A stretch of DNA of 64,000 bases from Deltaproteobacteria bacterium (lineage in GTDB: Bacteria > Myxococcota > Myxococcia > Myxococcales > 40CM-4-68-19): positions 6,226-70,225 of the forward strand of contig JAYWBT010000114.1 in assembly GCA_043781235.1 (NCBI GenBank), read 5' to 3'. The notes under the pieces were generated by a model. That model was not told the DNA's origin. It made no database searches and saw nothing but the letters and a program-made list of their open reading frames with translations. Position numbers and translations under genes: made by a program. Position 1 is the stretch's first letter, and the number at the start of each line of letters is the position of its first letter. Shown here in pieces: positions 2,656 to 12,155 of the stretch.

Positions 2656-2762
2656 GCTCGCTCGGAGCGGAGCGATGATTCGGCTCGCAGGGGTCCCGAA
2701 ATGGTCGGCACAGATCGTGCTCAGCCCATTTCCGCCGCATCTCGCGGTCCGGAAATGGGACC

Positions 2763-3812
2763 ATGCTGCTCCTGCTCACGCTGCTGCTCGCCCAGGCTGC
2801 GCCTGCCACCAAAGCTCCGCCCGACGTCTCCGTCGACGCCGCCGCGCCCACGCGCGATCCGATCGCCCTGCACGAGCCTGATCTGGCTGCTCCCGATCAC
2901 GCTCCGGGTGAGGTGAAAACGAACGATGCCGTCGCCAGGTCCGAGAGCGATGCAGTCGACGAGTCCGATCACGACCCGGTAAGTCTCGAGCACGATCCGG
3001 GCGCCGGACTCGAGCACGATCCGGGCGCCGGACCGGAGCGCGATCCGTCCGAGCCGGAAGAGCACGAGGACGACGAGCCGCGCTCGCTGGACACCTCGCT
3101 CGAGAGCGCCGCGGGTCGCATGGGAGAGCGGCATGTCGAGCTGGTGGCGCGGGCGCGCAGCGGCGAGGTCACCCTCGTGGTGGGCGCCGAGACGCTCGCG
3201 AGCGACCGCGCGCCCGAGCGCCGCGCGGTCATCCTCGGCTTTGAGCTCGCTCGCGGCGACCTCTCGTGGGAGGGCGAGCTGCGCACTGCCCCGCAGGCCG
3301 CGGGGCTCGCGCGGCTGGTCGCGCGGCTCGGCATGCATGGAGACTTCGCGGGCCTCTCGCTGCTCGGGCGCGACGAGACGCTGCACGGAACGCGGCTGCG
3401 CGCGGCAGGGCTCGCGCTCGATCTCGACCGGCCGCTCGACTCCGGGTGGCGCCTCGCGCTCTCGGCCTCGGCGTGGGCCACGGACCTCAGCGCTCCGCCG
3501 CAGGTGGGCGGCGGGCGACGCTCGCGCGATCCTTGGAGCGCCTTCGGCGCCGCCACGCTCGACTGGGCACAGCGGTGGGAGCTGTCCCTGTCGGCAAAGC
3601 ACACGCTCGGCCCGCTGTCGATCGCGGCCAGTCTCGGCGTCGCGCAGCCCGCCCAGGACGGCGCGTATGCGGCGCGCGCATCACTCGGGCTCGAGACGCA
3701 GTTGGGGCCGGCGCGGCTCGCGCTTTCGGTCGCGCTCGCGCACCTGTGGCCGGCGGACCTCTGGCTCGCCGACGCGATGCTCGGCATCAGCTGGCACGTC
3801 GGCGACGACTGA
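2763..3812 (+). CDS. Secreted acidic protein with an Asp/Glu/His-rich linker and a beta-rich C-terminal half, unknown function
   Basis: ATG 2763 is the only in-frame start (upstream in-frame stop at 2676). The N-terminus MLLLLTLLLAQAAPA is hydrophobic. The frame is GC3-rich and contains the LEHDPGAG tandem repeat. No family recognised. Confidence 0.55.
   Translation: MLLLLTLLLAQAAPATKAPPDVSVDAAAPTRDPIALHEPDLAAPDHAPGEVKTNDAVARSESDAVDESDHDPVSLEHDPGAGLEHDPGAGPERDPSEPEEHEDDEPRSLDTSLESAAGRMGERHVELVARARSGEVTLVVGAETLASDRAPERRAVILGFELARGDLSWEGELRTAPQAAGLARLVARLGMHGDFAGLSLLGRDETLHGTRLRAAGLALDLDRPLDSGWRLALSASAWATDLSAPPQVGGGRRSRDPWSAFGAATLDWAQRWELSLSAKHTLGPLSIAASLGVAQPAQDGAYAARASLGLETQLGPARLALSVALAHLWPADLWLADAMLGISWHVGDD
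2985..3032 (+). repeat. Perfect 2 x 24-nt tandem duplication (ctcgagcacgatccgggcgccgga) inside the CDS, plus a degenerate third unit
   Basis: Read directly: 2985..3008 is identical to 3009..3032. The repeat encodes LEHDPGAG twice. Confidence 0.95.
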
Positions 3813-3919
3813 CGATTGCAGAAAGCCAGAGCAGACCACCCAGCTCTGCGGGCGCACCCGACGTCCAGCGATCGGACGCCTGGCGATCGCGGCGTCGTCA
3901 CACAAAGTTACCGAACCCG

Positions 3920-4141
3920 TTACGCAGCCTGGCCAAACGCCTCGAGCGCGAGCATCGCCAGCGCGCGGTTGAGGAGTTGCAGGCGGCGTCGGGCCGAGGC
4001 GATGGCGGCGCGGGCGCGCGGCGAGTCGTCATGGTACCGCTGCATGGTGTCCCTGAGGATTTCGTAAGCGACCTGCACCCGGCCGATCAGCTGGATCCGG
4101 TTGAGACGCGCCTGCCCACCATTCCGCTGTGAACGCTCCAT
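3920..4141 (-). CDS. Small helical Arg-rich protein (73 aa), unknown function
   Basis: GGAGG lies 5 nt upstream of ATG 4141, and the frame is GC3-biased. It sits directly downstream of the sigma-54 activator gene and has a candidate sigma-54 promoter upstream. Confidence 0.55.
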   Translation of the reverse strand: MERSQRNGGQARLNRIQLIGRVQVAYEILRDTMQRYHDDSPRARAAIASARRRLQLLNRALAMLALEAFGQAA

Positions 4142-4189
4142 GAAGGCCTCCGTGCGCCAATTCCGGTTGGCGCCGATGCCTCTCTTTGA

Positions 4190-4205
4190 TGCATGGGGCC
4201 GGCCA
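4190..4205 (-). promoter_or_regulatory. Candidate sigma-54 (-24/-12) promoter TGGCCG-N5-ATGCA
   Basis: The minus strand reads TGGCCGgccccATGCA, with the invariant GG and GC at the correct GG-N10-GC spacing (consensus TGGCAC-N5-TTGCA). It lies about 50 nt upstream of ATG 4141 and next to an NtrC-type activator gene. Confidence 0.35.
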
Positions 4206-4351
4206 AACCTTCATCCACAGCGCAAGGGGCTGGAATGATTGAATTCGAGATCGCCTGGCGCAACCGCACTAGCGCGCGATTCTATCGAACGTAGCCAATT
4301 CGACAGGAGCCGCTGTCAAAACTGCCGAAATGGTTTTCTCTAAACAGGAAG

Positions 4352-5755
<1,404 letters not shown>

Positions 5756-5862
5756 TCAAGACTCCCTTTCAGGCAACCGCGAGGGCGCGAAAACGCGAAG
5801 TTGGGCTGATTTGCCGAAAATAGACCATGCCGGCTTCGCGCCTTCGCGGTTGGTATTCTTTT

Positions 5863-7368
5863 TCACGCGAGAGGGACGGATTCGGCGGGGAAGCGGACGG
5901 TGAAGGCGGAGCCGCGGCCCAGCTCGCTCTCGACGTCGATGCGCCCCTTGAGCGCGCGCGCGATCTCCTTGCAGATGGCGAGGCCCAGCCCGGTGCCCTT
6001 TCCGTTCGGCTTGGTGGTGTAGAAGGGCTCGAAGATGTGTCGCTTCACCTCGGGAGCCATCCCCGACCCGGTGTCGGCCACGCGCAGCACCAGATCGGGC
6101 CCGTCGCGGTGCGCCTGCACCTCGAGCCGCCCGCCCTGCGGCATGGCGTCGATGGCGTTTGCGACCAGGTTGGTGAGCAGGTGCCGCACCAGGCCGGGGT
6201 CGGTCCGCACCGCGCCCGCGTCCACCTCGCGCGCCACCTGAATCTTCGCGCGCGCCTCGGTCCCCAGCGTCAGATCGAGCGCCTCGTCCACCAACGGCCC
6301 GAGCGGGACCTCCTCGGCCGTCGGGGTGAAGCCGCGCGTCTGATCGAGGAAGCGGCGGATGATCTGCGCCATCCGCTGCGCCTCGCGATTGACGATAGCC
6401 ACCTGCTCCTTTGCCGGCTCGGGCACATCCGCCCGCCGCGCGAGCAGCTGCAAATGGCCCGAGAGCGCGTTCAGCGGGTTGCCCAACTCGTGCGCGATGG
6501 TGCCGGCGAGCTGCCCCAGCGCGGCCAGCCGCTCTTTCGCGGTGAGATCGCGCCGCGCCGCCACCAGCAGCTCGTTGAGCTCCTCGAGCGTGCGGTTCTT
6601 GCGCGTCAGCTCAGCGGTGGCGTCCTCGATCTTGCGCGTCAGCTCGGCGTTGAAGCCGCGGATCTGCGCGAGCATGCGGTTGAACCCGCGCGCGAGATAG
6701 GCAAGCTCGTCGCCCCCCTCGGCCGGCCCCGGCGCGGCGACCGCCAGCTGCCCGCCCTCCACCGCGCGCATGGTGTCCTCCAGCGCCGAGACCCGGCGGA
6801 TGAGAATGCGGCCGAGCAGGATCCAGAAGGCGATGACGAGGAAGACGCTGGCGCCGAGCGCGACCTCGAGCAGCGCGCGCCGCTCGGCAGCCACCAGTCG
6901 CTGCGCCTCGCCGAGCGACGCGAGCAGCACCAGCCGCGCCCGACCGCCGCGCGCGTCGCTGAAAGGGGCGACCACGCGAACCACGCGGCCGGCGTCCGGA
7001 TCGTCCAGCACCTCGGCCGGCGTACGCGTCGCCGGTCCGCGCGTGCGGGTGAAATCGATTCCACTGGGAGTGAGACGCGCGACGGTGAACTCGGCGTCGA
7101 CTCCGAGCGACGCCGGCCGCGTCAGTTCGGCGCGCAAGAGTCCGCGGTGCATGCGCACCGTGGCAGCCAGCTCCTCGGAGAGCTGCTCGTCGTCGGAGCC
7201 GGCTTTCTTGAGCGCGACCGTGGTCGCGAAGGCGAGTTCGTCGGTGCGCTTGCGGATCTCGGTCTCGACCGACCCCTGCGCGATACGCAGGCCCAGCGCG
7301 GTGGCGACGAGCAGCGTGCCCGCGAGCACCGCGGTGAAAAGCGCGACGAGCTGCAGCCGCAGCGACAC
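5863..7368 (-). CDS. Sensor histidine kinase (TM/periplasmic region, HAMP, HisKA, HATPase_c)
   Basis: H-box AHELGNPLNAL, N-box LTNLVANAIDAM, G1 DTGSGM and G2 GTGLGLAI are all present. A HAMP-like segment precedes the H-box. Confidence 0.9.
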   Translation of the reverse strand: MSLRLQLVALFTAVLAGTLLVATALGLRIAQGSVETEIRKRTDELAFATTVALKKAGSDDEQLSEELAATVRMHRGLLRAELTRPASLGVDAEFTVARLTPSGIDFTRTRGPATRTPAEVLDDPDAGRVVRVVAPFSDARGGRARLVLLASLGEAQRLVAAERRALLEVALGASVFLVIAFWILLGRILIRRVSALEDTMRAVEGGQLAVAAPGPAEGGDELAYLARGFNRMLAQIRGFNAELTRKIEDATAELTRKNRTLEELNELLVAARRDLTAKERLAALGQLAGTIAHELGNPLNALSGHLQLLARRADVPEPAKEQVAIVNREAQRMAQIIRRFLDQTRGFTPTAEEVPLGPLVDEALDLTLGTEARAKIQVAREVDAGAVRTDPGLVRHLLTNLVANAIDAMPQGGRLEVQAHRDGPDLVLRVADTGSGMAPEVKRHIFEPFYTTKPNGKGTGLGLAICKEIARALKGRIDVESELGRGSAFTVRFPAESVPLA

Positions 7369-7370
7369 TT

Positions 7371-7553
7371 TTACGAGGGCGGCAGCTGCTTTTTCACGGC
7401 GGTCGCCGGCTCCTCATCGACCGCGGTGAGCCCCTTCTTGAAGCCGCGGATCGCCTCGCCCAGGCTCGAGCCGAGCTGGGGCAGCTTCGACGGACCGAAG
7501 AAGAGCAGCGCCAGCACCAGGATGACCAGGATCTCGCCGAAACCAAGCCTCAT
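7371..7553 (-). CDS. tatA: Twin-arginine translocase subunit TatA/E
   Basis: MRLGFGEILVILVLALLFFGPSKLPQLGSSLGEAIRGFKKG is the canonical TatA layout (TM helix, FGxxKLP hinge, amphipathic helix). GGAGG lies 8 nt upstream. Its stop is 2 nt from the kinase start. Confidence 0.9.
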   Translation of the reverse strand: MRLGFGEILVILVLALLFFGPSKLPQLGSSLGEAIRGFKKGLTAVDEEPATAVKKQLPPS

Positions 7554-7662
7554 GATGACGCCTCCGAGAGTGGGTGCATACAGGGAACCGAGGGGGATCG
7601 CAAAGGTGAATCTTGCCGCAGTCGCGACGCGGGCTCGCTTGCAACGGCTTTGGGCGCGACGC

Positions 7663-7702
7663 TGAAAAGAAAGCGGCGGGGATCCGGATGAATCCCCGCC
7701 GC
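7663..7702 (-). terminator. Rho-independent terminator (11-bp perfect GC stem, 8-nt loop, U-tract)
   Basis: Plus-strand gcggcggggat (7673..7683) pairs with atccccgccgc (7692..7702). On the minus strand the hairpin is followed by TTTCTTTTC. Confidence 0.8.
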
Positions 7703-7724
7703 CCGACGTGCGTGCGTCGATCGC

Positions 7725-7784
7725 CTACGCCCGGAGAGCGGCGAGGGCGATGGCACACGCGAGACGTCTGGTTGCGTCCGACAT
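7725..7784 (-). CDS. Candidate 19-codon sORF MSDATRRLACAIALAALRA (leader-peptide or type I toxin-like)
   Basis: The mRNA carries GAAAGGAGGUGAU (plus strand 7788..7800 = ATCACCTCCTTTC, identical to the 16S 3' tail). The AGGAGG core is 7 nt from the ATG. A TAG stop and then a terminator follow 22 nt downstream. No homology evidence is available. Confidence 0.3.
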   Translation of the reverse strand: MSDATRRLACAIALAALRA

Positions 7785-7916
7785 GCCATCACCTCCTTTC
7801 GCCAACTCCCGAAGCCTAACCGCTGCGTCGGGCCCGCGCCAGATCGGCGAGGAGGTGTCGCCGGTTTCGGCGACGCTCCTCAGGCGGTCGCCAACTGGAG
7901 AACGCGCGGAGGGCGT

Positions 7917-10130
7917 CTACGGCGAGACGGAAACCTGCAGCGCCGTGAAGGCGGCGAGGTTGGTCCCGATCTGGTCGAGCCCCACGGGCCCGCCGAAGGT
8001 CTCGAGCTGCTCGGCGGTCACCGCGGTGGTCAGCTTCAGGCTGAGCAGCCGGGCGGTCGGGCCGGCGGTCTTGCCGTCGGCGCCGGGCGCGTCGGCGAAG
8101 GGATCGGTCAGGCCGATCGAACTCACTGAGGGATCGGGCAAGGTAATCGGACCGCCCGCTGCCGCCGTGGGGCTGATCCATATGTTCCAGGCGAGCCGCG
8201 CGTTGTTCTCCAACTCGAAGCGGTAGATCTGCGCGCGCGTGTCGGCCGGCGTGCCCACGTCCAGCTGCCGCCCCGTCTTTTTGATGGTGACGGAGACGGT
8301 AGACGGCAAACTGAGGTAGGGCTCGGGAAAGGGCACGTCCACGGCGGCAGCGGGCGGCGCGACGTAGTCGATCTTGTCCATCGTCTTGATCAGGCCGCTC
8401 ACTGCCACGCGCGTAGTCGAGCCCGGCGAAAGACCGCCGAAGTTGAGCGCGAGCAGCGCCACGCCATACTTGCTGCCCTCGGCGCCATTGTTCGGCGGCG
8501 CCATCTTGAAAGGCAGGACGCTGGTCGCGCACGCGGTCGGGCCGCCGCTCGGGTCGCAGGTGGGATCGAGCACCTTGGCCGTGTTGGCCTTGTTCGAGTC
8601 CTTCGCCGAGAGGCCCGCGGTCAGGCCGAGCGGCAGGAAGCCCACCGGATAGTCCATCGCGCCAGCGACCACCAGCGCGCCGTCCAGGTACTTGCCGTCG
8701 AGCTTGGGAAGGTCGGGCGACTTGGCCTGCACCCGCAGGCGCAGCGGCGTGTTCAGCGGGATGGCAACCGGCGCGAACGTGCCGGGACCTCCCGCGGCCG
8801 GCGGCGTCGCCTGCACATCCACGAGCGCGCCCGCCTGCAGCTTGCTGAAGAGGGGCAGCAGCTGCGGCAGGAGGCCGCCGATGTCGGGCGCGCCACCGCT
8901 GCCGCCGGACAGCACCGGCCCGAGCGCGGTGACCACCGAGGTGAGGTTCACGTTGCCGCCCAGGCCCCAGATGGCGCGCTTGCCCGGGTCGGTGAAGACC
9001 CGGTAGTCCTGCGTGTTGAAGAGGTTCGAGCCGACGCCCAGCACCAGGCCGTAGGGCAGGTTCTTGTTGAAGGTGCTGCCGCCGAGCGAGATGCTCACCG
9101 GGTGCGAGGTGCCGAGCAGAGTGTCGACCGAAAGATCGAGCAGGCTGTTGGGGATGCTGCTGCCGAAGAAAGCAAGGTGCACGGCCTCGCCCTGGGCCGC
9201 GAGCGGTGAGAAGTCGCCTTCCGGCGGGCAGACGGCGTCGTTGGCGCCGGCGCGCTGATCACACATGTGACCGGTGAAGCCGCTGCGCTTGCTGGCGGCG
9301 AGGTACGGCGTCAACGGAGCGAGGATGTCCGTCGCGGTCGTCTGGATAAACGACGTGTAGCCGTAGCCCGCCGCGAATACGTGCACGTCTTGTGAGCCCG
9401 TCTGGCCCGCGAAGCTCACCACGCCGTCGGCGCCGGTCACGCACGACGCAGGAGTCGCATTCGGGCAGGCCGCCGAAAAGGTGAGCAGCACCTTCGCGCC
9501 CATCACCGGCACCTTGCTGTCGATGTTGATGACGGTGATGCGGAGCGCGCCCGGCGCCTGCGCTCCGTAGGAGTGGACCGTGGCGGCCGGGCAGGTCGCG
9601 GTGCCGCCAGTGACGCTGGCGCCGACGACGATATCGCCAGCCCCGGTGCCGGTGAGGAGGCCCGTCTGATCGATGGTTCCGGGGCCCGAGGTGACCGACC
9701 AGGTGAACTTGTCCCAGTGCACTGCGCGACCCCCCGAGTCCTGCGCCAGCCCCTTGAGTTGTACGGTCGGGTTGGTCGCGCCGGCGCGGACCTCGGCGGG
9801 GTTCGGCGCGACGTCGCAGTGGGCGATCTGGGTCGCGTCGGGCGAGGTGGAGCACTTGCCGTTCAGGCACGACTGGCCGCTCGCGCACTGCGAATCGCTG
9901 CCGCAAGCGGGCAAGAGACAAATGCCTTCCTCACAGACCTGGGGGGTGCTGCAGTCCGAGGTCTGGTGGCAGTTGGGAACGCACTGCGAGCTCAGGCAGA
10001 CCTGCCCGCTCGCGCAGTCCGCGCGCGTGGCGCAGGCGGGGCCCGCGTCGGGCGGTGTGACGGTGGTGCTGCCCTTGCCGCAGGCACCAAGCATCAAGAC
10101 CGCGCAGGCCGTCACGAAACGATGGAGCAT
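7917..10130 (-). CDS. Large lipoprotein with myxo-type Cys-rich repeats, a Big_2-like Ig domain and a CarboxypepD_reg-like domain
   Basis: ORF 7917..10367. I start it at ATG 10130 (GGAAGGGGAA RBS), which gives MLHRFVTACAVLMLGACGKG (lipobox). It has three CxxxxDCxxGxxCxxxxC repeats and an Ig-like segment (VAPNPAEVRAGAT...VGASVTGGTA). Confidence 0.75.
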   Translation of the reverse strand: MLHRFVTACAVLMLGACGKGSTTVTPPDAGPACATRADCASGQVCLSSQCVPNCHQTSDCSTPQVCEEGICLLPACGSDSQCASGQSCLNGKCSTSPDATQIAHCDVAPNPAEVRAGATNPTVQLKGLAQDSGGRAVHWDKFTWSVTSGPGTIDQTGLLTGTGAGDIVVGASVTGGTATCPAATVHSYGAQAPGALRITVINIDSKVPVMGAKVLLTFSAACPNATPASCVTGADGVVSFAGQTGSQDVHVFAAGYGYTSFIQTTATDILAPLTPYLAASKRSGFTGHMCDQRAGANDAVCPPEGDFSPLAAQGEAVHLAFFGSSIPNSLLDLSVDTLLGTSHPVSISLGGSTFNKNLPYGLVLGVGSNLFNTQDYRVFTDPGKRAIWGLGGNVNLTSVVTALGPVLSGGSGGAPDIGGLLPQLLPLFSKLQAGALVDVQATPPAAGGPGTFAPVAIPLNTPLRLRVQAKSPDLPKLDGKYLDGALVVAGAMDYPVGFLPLGLTAGLSAKDSNKANTAKVLDPTCDPSGGPTACATSVLPFKMAPPNNGAEGSKYGVALLALNFGGLSPGSTTRVAVSGLIKTMDKIDYVAPPAAAVDVPFPEPYLSLPSTVSVTIKKTGRQLDVGTPADTRAQIYRFELENNARLAWNIWISPTAAAGGPITLPDPSVSSIGLTDPFADAPGADGKTAGPTARLLSLKLTTAVTAEQLETFGGPVGLDQIGTNLAAFTALQVSVSP

Positions 10131-10361
10131 CCGGGGTTCCCCTTCCAGCTGAAAAGTCCAGAAGCGATACGTGGAGCCCGCCCGAAAAAGTCGGCGCAGG
10201 GTGATGAACGTAGCGCCGTGTGTCAAGTCGCGGCGCGCCAGGCAGGCGGGGGCTTCTCCCGCGGAAGAAGACTCTCGCGCAGGAGCGCCGACCACGCATC
10301 GGACATTCAGCGGGCGGTGCATTTTCGCGCGCCGATCCGTCGATTCCGCTACCATCGATTC

Positions 10362-11816
10362 GTGCATGGCTTCGCGCTCGCGCTGCTCCTGGCTACCGCC
10401 GAGCTCCCTTCGCAGGCCCAGCTAGAAGCGGCGGTGCAGGAAGCCATCGCCGGCTCGTGCCCGCGGCGGTCGGTCGCTTTCGATCGAGACTTGACCGCGG
10501 CGGCGCGCGCGTTCTCCACCGCGGCCAAGGTCGGGCTCACCGACGTGACCGGGAGCGCCCTCTCCTTTTACGCGTCGCTGGAGTCGAGCGAGCCGGCGCC
10601 CATCGCCGGCGTCGCCACCGTGTCGCCGCCCTCGCAGGCTGACCGCGCGGTGGGCGAGCTCTTTCCCAAGGCGTGCCGCTTCAACCGCATCGGCGTGGCG
10701 GCGGCGGTGCTGGCGAGCGGCGAGGCGGTGGTGGCGGCCCTCACGGCGCAGCATGCGTCGGACCTTGCGCCCATCCCGGGGCACGTCGCGTCGGGCGACT
10801 CCGTCGAGGTGAGCGGCCGTCTCGCGACCGGGCTCACGAAGCCGCGGCTCTTCGTCACCCGGCCCGGCGGCGAGGTCGAGGAGCTGAAGCTCGCGACGGC
10901 CGGCGACCGCTTCTCCGGCCGTGTCACCCTGCGCCCCGACGGCGAGCACTCCGTCGAGGTGCTCGGCAACGGTCCGGGCGGACCCCAGGTGCTGGCCGTG
11001 CGACGGGTATTCGCCGGTGTCGAACGGCCCGCGCGCCCGCCCGCGCTGCGAGCCCCAGGCACCGGCCTTGCCGCGGTGGAGACCGAAATCGACCGACTCC
11101 GCTCCGCGCGGGGTCTGCCGCACCTCCAGCGCGACGCCGAGCTCGACGCGGTGGCGGAAGGCCATAGCCGCGAAATGGCGCGCACGCGAACCTTTGCGCA
11201 TGTGCTTGCAAGCGATGGCAGCCTGTCAGACCGGCTGCGTAAGTCCGGCTACGCCTATCAATCGGCCGGAGAGAACATCGGCCTTTCCGACGACGCCGTC
11301 ACCGCGCACCAGGCGGTGGCCGGATCGCCCGCGCACCTCGCGAATCTCCTCGATCCGCGGCATCGCCGGCTGGGACTGGGCACGGCGCGCGGCGTCTCGC
11401 CCGACGGCGCGCAGGCCGTCTACCTCACCGAGGTGCTCGCGGCGCCCGTGGTCGGGTCGGCGGACCCCGCGAGCGAGGCGCTCGGCCTGATCGCGCAGGA
11501 GCGCGCCCGCCGGAGGTTGCCGCCGCTCGCGCGCAGTGCAGACCTGGACGCGGTGGCGCGCCGCGCGATCGCGCAGGTCGCGCTGTCAGACTCGCTCAAG
11601 CTGCCCGCGGAGGTCACCGCCGCCGCGCTCGACATCGATCCGACTCTCAAGAGCGTGGTGGGCGAACTCTTCGTGGGCAGCGCGCCCGACGAGACGAAGA
11701 CCTCGAGCAACCTGGGGGACCCGCGATGGACGCGCGTCGGCCTGGGAGCCATTTATGCCAGTTCGAAGGCCTACGGACCCGGCCGGCTCTGGGTGCTGGT
11801 CCTCTACGCCAACTAA
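10362..11816 (+). CDS. Secreted CAP/SCP (YkwD-like) domain protein
   Basis: The C-terminal half contains GHSREMARTRTFAHV...SGYAYQSAGENIG...AHQAVAGSPAHLANLLDPRHRRLGLG, typical of CAP/SCP domains. I chose GTG 10362 (VHGFALALLLATAELPSQAQ, signal-like). The 747-aa ORF upstream part is antisense to the lipoprotein gene. Confidence 0.7.
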   Translation: MHGFALALLLATAELPSQAQLEAAVQEAIAGSCPRRSVAFDRDLTAAARAFSTAAKVGLTDVTGSALSFYASLESSEPAPIAGVATVSPPSQADRAVGELFPKACRFNRIGVAAAVLASGEAVVAALTAQHASDLAPIPGHVASGDSVEVSGRLATGLTKPRLFVTRPGGEVEELKLATAGDRFSGRVTLRPDGEHSVEVLGNGPGGPQVLAVRRVFAGVERPARPPALRAPGTGLAAVETEIDRLRSARGLPHLQRDAELDAVAEGHSREMARTRTFAHVLASDGSLSDRLRKSGYAYQSAGENIGLSDDAVTAHQAVAGSPAHLANLLDPRHRRLGLGTARGVSPDGAQAVYLTEVLAAPVVGSADPASEALGLIAQERARRRLPPLARSADLDAVARRAIAQVALSDSLKLPAEVTAAALDIDPTLKSVVGELFVGSAPDETKTSSNLGDPRWTRVGLGAIYASSKAYGPGRLWVLVLYAN

Positions 11817-11823
11817 GCCGCTC

Positions 11824-12069
11824 CTAGGCGGACCTCCGCTGCGTCGCGAAGGCCTCGATCGAATGCTCAGGAGAGCCATCGGTGACCGTGTAATTCGGGC
11901 AGCGCACGCAGGTAAAGCTATTCCAGCCCCGCTTGACCGCGTCGTTCAGGCACTCGTCGTACGAAGTGCAGAAAAGGTTGCGGTGCGCCTCGACGGACAT
12001 CTTCCGATTGCCCTCGAGGCTGATCGGCGTCGTCATCTCAGTCGGGAACGGCTTCGCCATGACAGCCAT
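11824..12069 (-). CDS. Small conserved-looking Cys4 protein (81 aa), possible metal/Fe-S binding
   Basis: GGAGG lies 10 nt upstream of ATG 12069. GC content is locally lower. The Cys pattern is C-x5-C-x13-C-x2-C (FCTSYDECLNDAVKRGWNSFTCVRCP). No family recognised. Confidence 0.55.
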   Translation of the reverse strand: MAVMAKPFPTEMTTPISLEGNRKMSVEAHRNLFCTSYDECLNDAVKRGWNSFTCVRCPNYTVTDGSPEHSIEAFATQRRSA

Positions 12070-12155
12070 GCGGATGAAACCTCCTGAAGGCGGGGGCATA
12101 TAACAGAACGCGTCAACCGGCGCCACTCGACCGGCCGCGGCGCGGCAATGTCAGC

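Follow-up and report, generated by a model that had tools for sequence, protein, structure and literature searches.

The 64,000-nucleotide (nt) stretch of DNA analyzed here (contig JAYWBT010000114.1; called the window, to the whole of which all coordinates refer) carries on its minus strand a lipoprotein gene followed by tatA, a histidine kinase gene and a gene for a sigma-54-dependent response regulator. The lipoprotein stop codon and the tatA start are 363 nt apart, and comparison with related genomes indicates that this gap holds a real, conserved and unannotated unit just upstream of tatA, a cassette on the same strand made up of a promoter, a Shine-Dalgarno sequence (SD), a short open reading frame (sORF) and a terminator (Table 1). 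Two metagenome contigs carried an identical intergenic region. An earlier note, made from the sequence of the window, had described the SD, a 19-codon sORF, a hairpin and a T-tract at this place. Re-reading the minus strand confirmed all four, and a hairpin scan extended the stem to 15 pairs. The terminator hairpin GCGGCGGGGAT/ATCCCCGCCGC (7702..7673) begins 22 nt past the sORF stop and its T-tract, TTTCTTTTC, lies 111 nt ahead of the tatA ATG (7553). Transcription of the cassette is predicted to start near 7806, which would place the SD almost at the 5' end of the transcript.

Compared with the established sequence of the 16S rRNA 3' tail, the SD 13-mer is a perfect complement. It occurred once in the 128 kb of the window's two strands and was the only run of at least 11 bases complementary to the tail there. 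The window contained no rRNA or tRNA genes. The arginine codon pair AGA-CGT in the sORF was likewise as atypical as the note had said, as AGA and CGT make up 0.7% and 2.7% of the 1213 arginine codons in the 38 open reading frames (ORFs) of the window with high GC3, and AGA and AGG together less than 4% of arginine codons in the window. RNA from 7804 to 7663 folded at -78.6 kcal/mol compared to -58.4 +/- 4.1 kcal/mol for shuffled sequences (z = -4.9). Searches with Rfam at gathering thresholds returned zero matches in the window and 12 related loci, and permissive E-values added only sub-threshold matches, generic terminator look-alikes that differed between copies. Two longer ORFs overlapping the sORF were rejected as artefacts: an 80-amino-acid (aa) GTG ORF (7550..7792) crosses the terminator and its frame has stops in relatives, and a 26-aa TTG ORF (7725..7805) is the sORF prolonged upstream over the SD.

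To assess conservation we collected relatives through homologues of the lipoprotein (82% down to 39% identity), all of them in uncultured 'Myxococcales/Deltaproteobacteria' assemblies, taking the loci from genome and metagenome contigs plus an exact-protein look-up. The cassette was present in 13 distinct uncultured Myxococcota lineages, always as a single copy between the lipoprotein gene and tatA and co-oriented with tatA. These were the window, three close carriers whose lipoprotein is 74-80% identical to the window's (L003, L012 and L040), two intermediate carriers at 59-61% (L041 and L042) and seven distant ones at 39-46% (L008, L009, L010, L028, L044, L046 and L047). The SD, the sORF and the hairpin thus recur in 12 further distinct relatives. 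Their recurrence is what most decisively speaks against chance, and the earlier note had itself named this comparison as one that could refute its proposal. Whole cassettes were found in long lipoprotein-tatA gaps, about 250-335 nt in the relatives. A covariance model of the cassette (R1) run on the window and 47 loci matched only the 13 known copies, one per locus. The sequence pattern of the cassette, GAAAGGAGGTGRTGNNATGNNGGA-N7-AGRCG, with the N7 spacer, had no match in viral contigs. On an AT-rich phage contig (L048:3900-3993, minus strand) a chance match combined AAAGGAGGTGATGTCATG, a 16-codon ORF and a hairpin with a T-run right past the stop; this small layout resembles the cassette but its sequence is unrelated.

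Sequence conservation was read from an alignment of the 13 copies (A3). The 60 nt upstream aligned without gaps, with yTGGCG or TTTGCG at a fixed distance and, 17-18 nt on, TAnnnT, realized as TAGGCT, TACTCT, TACGCT, TAGCAT, TAAGCT, TATGGT, TAGTCT, TATGTT, TATTGT or TAGAGT. A scan with the sigma-70 consensus called no promoter, and the cassette promoter is a prediction from this comparison between copies. The region from the SD to the start codon has the consensus GAAAGGAGGTGRT followed by ATG: AAGGAGGTG is invariant across copies and is followed by R, TG, two free bases and ATG. The sole variation in the SD is A or G at one position, either of which would pair with U. The sORF runs to 19 codons in 11 copies; in L041 and L042 it is cut to 16 by an in-frame 9-nt deletion, the only indel. 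It ends in TAG in 12 copies and TAA in one, never in TGA, the commonest stop in the window; the G of the TAG doubles as the first base of a conserved GGCG helix strand, so that a preference of release factor cannot be distinguished from RNA pairing. The peptide follows the pattern M-[S/T/K]-[D/E]-[A/T]-x-R-R-[S/L/A]-(x3)-[I/T]-A-F-A-A-[L/V/A]-x-A. Past the stop, GGCGA is near-invariant, as is CGTCG after a spacer of 3 to about 27 nt, and the terminator follows. Nucleotide identity to the window was 73-93% for the cassette, compared to 53-82% for the third codon positions of tatA (49% in L042, where that comparison is misaligned) and 23-69% for the spacer downstream of the terminator, arguing for selection at the nucleotide level.

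Table 1. Features of the cassette and of the surrounding genes in the window
Feature	Position	Strand	Description or basis
Lipoprotein gene	10130..7917	minus	Big_2-like, Cys-rich N-terminus
-35-like hexamer CTGGCG of the predicted cassette promoter	7837..7842	minus	Ungapped comparison of the upstream 60 nt in 13 copies
-10-like hexamer TAGGCT	7813..7818	minus	TAnnnT in 13/13 copies; 17-18 nt past the -35, 9 nt before GGCGAAAGG
13-nt SD GAAAGGAGGTGAT	7800..7788	minus	Sequence read and comparison of copies
sORF, 19 codons plus TAG, peptide MSDATRRLACAIALAALRA	7725..7784 (ATG at 7784, TAG 7727..7725)	minus	ATG and stop in 13/13 copies
Arginine codon pair AGA-CGT	7764..7769	minus	First codon AGR in 13/13 copies; third position of second codon free
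Anti-SD stretch inside the sORF, TGTGCCATCGCCCTCGCC, codons 10-15	7740..7757	minus	Consensus fold, pair counts, window fold, duplex energies
Small hairpin CGCC-N8-GGCG over codons 14-19	7728..7743	minus	Consensus fold
GGCG overlapping the stop codon, paired with CGTC just before the terminator	7705..7725	minus	Alignment, fold, pair counts
Intrinsic terminator: 15-pair stem (7704..7671) and T-tract (7672..7664)	7664..7704	minus	Hairpin scan, compensatory changes, energies
Block ATTCACCTTTGCGAT-N7-GGTTCCCTGTATGCA (also ATTCACCTTTGCGAT...GGTTCCCTGTAnnnA) between terminator and tatA	7575..7611	minus	Common to relatives without cassette; outside the cassette
tatA, 60 aa	7371..7553	minus	Pfam TatA_B_E, 8e-16
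Histidine kinase gene	7368..5863	minus	HAMP/HisKA/HATPase_c
Sigma-54-dependent response regulator gene	5755..4352	minus	Response_reg/Sigma54_activat/HTH_8

Coding potential of the sORF was assessed by comparing reading frames. Frame 0 was the only frame open in all 13 copies, with stops in several copies in the other frames. It showed 30% synonymous differences and a mean BLOSUM score of +1.0, compared to 15% and 10% and negative means in the other two. Changes confined to the third position were seen at codons 3 (GAY/GAA), 6 (AGR), 7 (CGN), 16 (GCW) and 17 (CTN). Codon 6 was AGR in every copy despite the rarity of this codon, next to a CGN that wobbles freely, a pattern pointing to decoding, and not the encoded residue, as the object of selection. 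From the sequence we infer that the sORF is translated, chiefly because its SD is perfect, its ATG is spaced at 7 nt, its length is fixed and its one deletion stays in frame. The SD strand is perfectly complementary to the 16S tail yet imperfectly to its intramolecular partner, with which it forms a bulge and two invariant G-U pairs, suggesting that ribosome binding is what is selected.

The consensus fold of the RNA consisted of four contiguous helices: the SD with its anti-SD strand, the CGCC-N8-GGCG hairpin, the GGCG/CGUC helix and the terminator. In the SD helix GGAGGUGAU pairs with CAUCGCCUU in codons 12-14. The conserved anti-SD stretch within the ORF, CATCGCCTTCGCC, pairs with the SD at -23 to -35 kcal/mol in every copy. 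Pair counts gave 98.8% of cells paired compared to 44-60% with the partners slid, and the SD hairpin, paired in about 99% of cells, was almost invariant, with one change from A-U to G-C. The stem that covers the AUG differs by clade, being GGCA/UGCC in the window's clade, GGA/UCC in L041 and L042 and CAUG/CAUG in the distant clade, in which codon 10 is AUG. A stem rebuilt from clade-specific sequence, together with the SD helix, argues that the sORF sequesters its own SD and start codon by means of codons 10-15. This sequestration, the most conserved structural feature of the cassette, had been missed in the earlier note, as had the conserved cassette promoter and a conserved promoter-like block for tatA past the terminator. 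The CGCC-N8-GGCG stem never varies and the comparison is neutral on this hairpin. The GGCG/CGTC helix was paired in 92% of cells, with a loop of 3 to about 27 nt between copies. A pairing of the AGACG loop with the CGUCG upstream of the terminator was considered and dropped, as it amounted to 4 bp with no consistent extension. In the terminator three pairs showed compensatory changes, in eight cells, and its hairpin energy ranged from -27 to -32 kcal/mol across copies.

An alternative pairing joins the sORF to the terminator. The 3' part of the anti-SD stretch, CTCGCCGC, running on to 7738, is able to pair with the 5' arm of the terminator instead of the SD. This pairing, 10-11 bp at -14 to -24.5 kcal/mol, was available in every copy, and the antiterminator helix was paired in 90.8% of cells. 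The center of the terminator 5' arm, CGGCGGGG, was invariant in 12 of the 13 copies, next to an upper stem and a base that covary, which would fit a double pairing constraint. The complementarity of CGCCGC in the sORF with GCGGCG in the terminator arm, put forward in the earlier note as an antiterminator, thus extends to all copies; covariation in its support was not seen.

The cassette is not a constant companion of tatA. The gene order lipoprotein-tatA-kinase was widely kept among the relatives, and short gaps of 6-144 nt without the cassette were found in L004-L007, L013, L015-L017, L020, L025, L037, L043 and L051. Sampling through the kinase gene added three more lineages (four loci), none with the cassette; L049, L050 and L052, found in this way, had neither the lipoprotein gene nor the cassette. 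Presence in distant lineages together with absence from many suggests that the cassette is old, patchily retained and dispensable for the operon.

Some loci without the cassette showed features of their own. At 6214-6242 of L007 model R1 found a hairpin, GCGGCGGGATCC...GGATCCCGCCGC, like the cassette terminator (E = 0.09), which may be the remnant of a lost cassette. In L005, L016 and L037 the lipoprotein-tatA gap is 6-27 nt with only an SD in between, and tatA is probably co-transcribed with the lipoprotein gene, the opposite of the insulated arrangement in the window. In L031 (1400-5381) and L019 the place of tatA downstream of the lipoprotein gene is taken by DNA richer in AT, which carries a DnaB-like helicase, a 257-aa ORF and what resembles an integrase fragment, and looks like a mobile-element insertion. 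Across the clade (window about 2700..12100; L001, L040-L047 and L049-L052) synteny is conserved over an SLT lytic transglycosylase, an 80-82-aa ORF, a CAP/SCP-domain protein encoded on the other strand, the lipoprotein, tatA, the kinase and the sigma-54 regulator, with a 71-73-aa ORF and a HAD hydrolase next in those loci that reach far enough. In this setting tatA is a member of a two-component operon, and tatB and tatC are not adjacent.

Whether tatA can be reached by read-through of the cassette terminator is best seen in L008. There a strong terminator (-33 kcal/mol) closes the lipoprotein gene, the cassette promoter and the cassette follow, and tatA starts 28 nt past the cassette T-tract with no other visible promoter. 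This arrangement argues that in L008 the cassette RNA is the 5' leader of tatA and that read-through of the terminator is required. In the window a hairpin, GGCGAC-N12-GTCGCC (7858..7881, minus strand), lies about 36 nt past the lipoprotein stop and has no T-tract, so in the window's clade transcripts of the lipoprotein gene may likewise stop at the cassette terminator. The promoter-like block between the terminator and tatA lies 20-55 nt upstream of tatA and is, most simply and judged from its sequence, a candidate promoter or regulatory site of tatA itself. A sigma-54 reading of this block was set aside, as the GG-N10-GC spacing fits the window and most loci and fails in L041, L042 and L013, and we call it only promoter-like; it could be a target of the sigma-54 regulator encoded downstream. 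The read-through route and a promoter of tatA's own may coexist.

The best single reading of these observations, which we hold tentatively and short of even confidence, is that the cassette is a translation-sensing, attenuator-type leader of the tatA-kinase-regulator operon, a unit of about 140 nt from about 7806 to 7665 on the minus strand. The layout suits such a leader in all 13 copies, with a short ORF between a promoter and a terminator, co-oriented with and upstream of tatA. To the parts, the conservation and the complementarities seen in the copies, the model would add translation, a pause at AGR, a kinetic competition and a physiological signal. Once the cassette promoter fired, the first RNA to emerge would be the maximal SD and the AUG. 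Codons 10-15 (CAUCGCCUUCGCC, which imperfectly copies the 16S anti-SD) would follow some 40 nt behind and fold onto the SD and AUG, limiting ribosome loading to a brief co-transcriptional window. The same stretch could switch to the terminator 5' arm (GCGGCGGGG). If no ribosome had loaded, or if a ribosome had reached the UAG, the terminator would form and the transcript would end. A pioneer ribosome that was delayed near the beginning of the ORF, with the invariant rare AGR-CGN pair as the most plausible site, would occupy the SD, leaving codons 13-16 free to hold the terminator 5' arm, and RNA polymerase could continue into tatA.

Several points weigh against an attenuator, and some of them speak equally for a stand-alone small gene, a reading we consider possible but on balance unlikely. 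In that case the RNA of about 140 nt would always terminate and act as a small RNA, as the messenger for a peptide of 16-19 residues or in both ways, with translation limited by the SD hairpin, and adjacency to tatA would reflect inherited synteny or a link at the peptide level rather than cis-regulation. The antiterminator showed no compensatory change: in L028, L008, L041 and L042 changes in the terminator 5' arm are compensated in the 3' arm and leave a mismatch with the sORF. When ribosome footprints were masked, only about 7 of the 13 copies had the antiterminator helix in their minimum free energy structure for nascent RNA, and at equilibrium the terminator formed in every masked state. 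Folding of this region, which the earlier note had recommended, thus gave alternative pairings but a terminator that wins at equilibrium, so any antitermination would have to be kinetic, as in the trp leader. The window's clade has the promoter-like block between terminator and tatA (7611..7575), common to relatives without the cassette, and tatA need not depend on read-through there. About 15 related loci have an intact tatA-kinase-regulator set and no cassette, which fits a stand-alone gene lost repeatedly while the tatA operon was kept, and the conserved promoter of the cassette, its very strong conserved terminator and a consensus fold of compact contiguous helices with possible pairing of the 5' and 3' ends would suit such a gene as well. 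When alignment columns were permuted the coding signal proved only marginal (p about 0.10 for the synonymous fraction, about 0.05 for BLOSUM), all loci were found via neighboring genes, which makes the linkage to tatA partly an ascertainment effect, and no obvious physiological logic ties arginyl-tRNA to Tat (twin-arginine translocation). A stand-alone gene is harder to reconcile with L008, in which the cassette RNA appears to be the tatA leader, with the position directly upstream of tatA in the same orientation in all 13 copies, with the retention of AGR and with a peptide whose middle varies freely and can even be deleted. The attenuator proposal of the earlier note therefore stands as the leading one with the cassette conserved, shorn of its signal-peptide part and with an antiterminator that covariation does not back.

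The marginal coding signal would also suit a structured non-coding RNA in which the SD and ORF are by-products of helices and the ORF is untranslated or its translation functionless, which we consider improbable. Conservation is mainly at the nucleotide level and extends past the stop into GGCGA and CGTCG, and the SD and AUG lie inside a very stable hairpin. Such an RNA would not account for an SD strand that matches the 16S tail over 13 nt in all copies and its own partner imperfectly, nor for an ATG 7 nt past GGAGG, a fixed stop, an in-frame indel and a frame that alone is open in all copies, and no Rfam family matched. The earlier note had seen in the peptide a bare Tat-type signal peptide, and the invariant arginine pair, the constant position next to tatA and, in the window's clade, a likeness to n- and h-regions are what such a peptide would show. 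It might then monitor Tat as SecM does Sec, or act as a free effector on TatA assembly; we regard this as highly unlikely. The signal-peptide look turned out to be limited to the window's clade, and only M[ST][DE], RR and IAFAA[LAV]xA are conserved. Residues 8-11 are polar or charged in distant copies (SDMC, SSMR, SDLR, AGMN) and deleted in L041 and L042, hydropathy (GRAVY) is -0.19 to 0.76 with a longest conserved apolar run of 6 residues, the residue before RR is S or T in only 7 of 13 copies, no F-L-K follows RR, and conservation of the first arginine extends to its codon. Chains of 16-19 residues stay inside the ribosomal exit tunnel until release, so co-translational monitoring of Tat is physically implausible. 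What separates the sORF from the tatA SD, an intrinsic terminator and 28-111 nt, is not a structure for translational coupling, and both this and the length of the sORF set it apart from SecM-like monitoring substrates. A dedicated Tat sensor, in which the released RR mini-peptide mimics a signal peptide on TatBC/TatA or decoding of AGR-CGN gates transcription of tatA and the two-component system, is a long shot at best. A hydrophobic peptide of the type I toxin kind, a reading also raised in the note and here taken with an mRNA that closes off the SD, has a slim chance: an Ibs-like length, sequestration of the SD and a possible pairing of the two RNA ends would suit it, but the peptide is too little hydrophobic to span a membrane (longest conserved apolar run IAFAAL, 2-6 charged residues), no antisense promoter or RNA gene was evident from sequence, the plus-strand hairpin has no T-tract, and both the 64-kb window and each fetched locus have just one copy of the cassette. 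We give practically no credence to the note's last alternative, a chance ORF ahead of the lipoprotein gene's terminator. The window has no other clear terminator past the lipoprotein stop, but all 13 lineages conserve the SD, the ATG, the length of the ORF, its stop and the promoter, and in distant copies a terminator hairpin distinct from that of the cassette lies upstream of the cassette promoter, past the lipoprotein gene.

Whatever its mode of action, the cassette is a clean case of a functional ORF of 16-19 codons overlooked by gene callers and Rfam in high-GC metagenome genomes. As a compact, easily mutated and conserved element before tatA it offers an experimental handle on Tat regulation in Myxococcota. 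Its design is unusual in that the leader's own maximal SD would be the switchable strand, and it could be a 'one ribosome per transcript' device. If it were merely a stand-alone small gene it would be a modest addition to the catalogues of small proteins and small RNAs, and interest would be high only if a Tat-specific signal were shown; a Tat sensor, if it were true, would be the first feedback device based on an upstream ORF to be described for Tat, a counterpart of SecM for Sec. Nothing relevant to a leader or attenuator of tatA came up in literature searches, and to our knowledge no control of tat genes by an upstream ORF or leader has been described.

Among known systems, the trpL, hisL, pheL and leuL attenuators of Enterobacteria share with the cassette a promoter, a short ORF (14-30 codons there), tandem regulatory codons and a co-oriented terminator directly upstream of the operon, as well as a segment that can pair either upstream or with the terminator 5' arm, and a rare codon as in leuL. 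The cassette departs from these leaders in several ways. Its region 1 is formed by the SD and start codon and not by sequence within the ORF, and it offers no more than two candidate regulatory codons. The genes it precedes are unconnected with any amino-acid pathway, covariation does not support the antiterminator, and tatA appears to have a second promoter. Translational attenuation of ermC, cat and cmlA, in which the position of the ribosome in the leader decides the hairpin, also uses a short leader ORF (ErmCL likewise has 19 codons) and an SD sequestered by leader-region sequence. There, however, the hidden SD is that of the downstream resistance gene and no terminator is involved, whereas the cassette hides its own SD, is followed by a terminator and has no antibiotic-resistance context. 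Type I toxin mRNAs (ibs/sib, hok/sok, aapA/isoA) likewise have a very small ORF whose SD is closed and a strong terminator, and their 5' and 3' ends may pair, but the cassette peptide is not a membrane helix, which, with its single copy, speaks against the toxin proposed earlier, and no antisense partner was seen. SecM, MifM, VemP and newer arrest peptides resemble the cassette in having an ORF with an export-type motif upstream of the gene for a protein-export component (PMC7897499; bioRxiv 10.1101/2023.09.02.556018). They differ in having about 90-170 residues with an N-terminal targeting signal and a C-terminal arrest motif and in acting on downstream translation, compared to 16-19 codons and a terminator here, and these surveys of arrest peptides upstream of protein-localization genes do not mention Tat. 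The terminated leader transcript rnTrpL of Sinorhizobium, with its small ORF peTrpL, is of similar size (about 110-140 nt) and is an attenuator RNA that also acts in trans (PMC6614838). It has no sequence or context relationship to the cassette, for which no trans target is known, but by analogy the cassette could, like rnTrpL, be an attenuator, a small RNA and a source of peptide at once.

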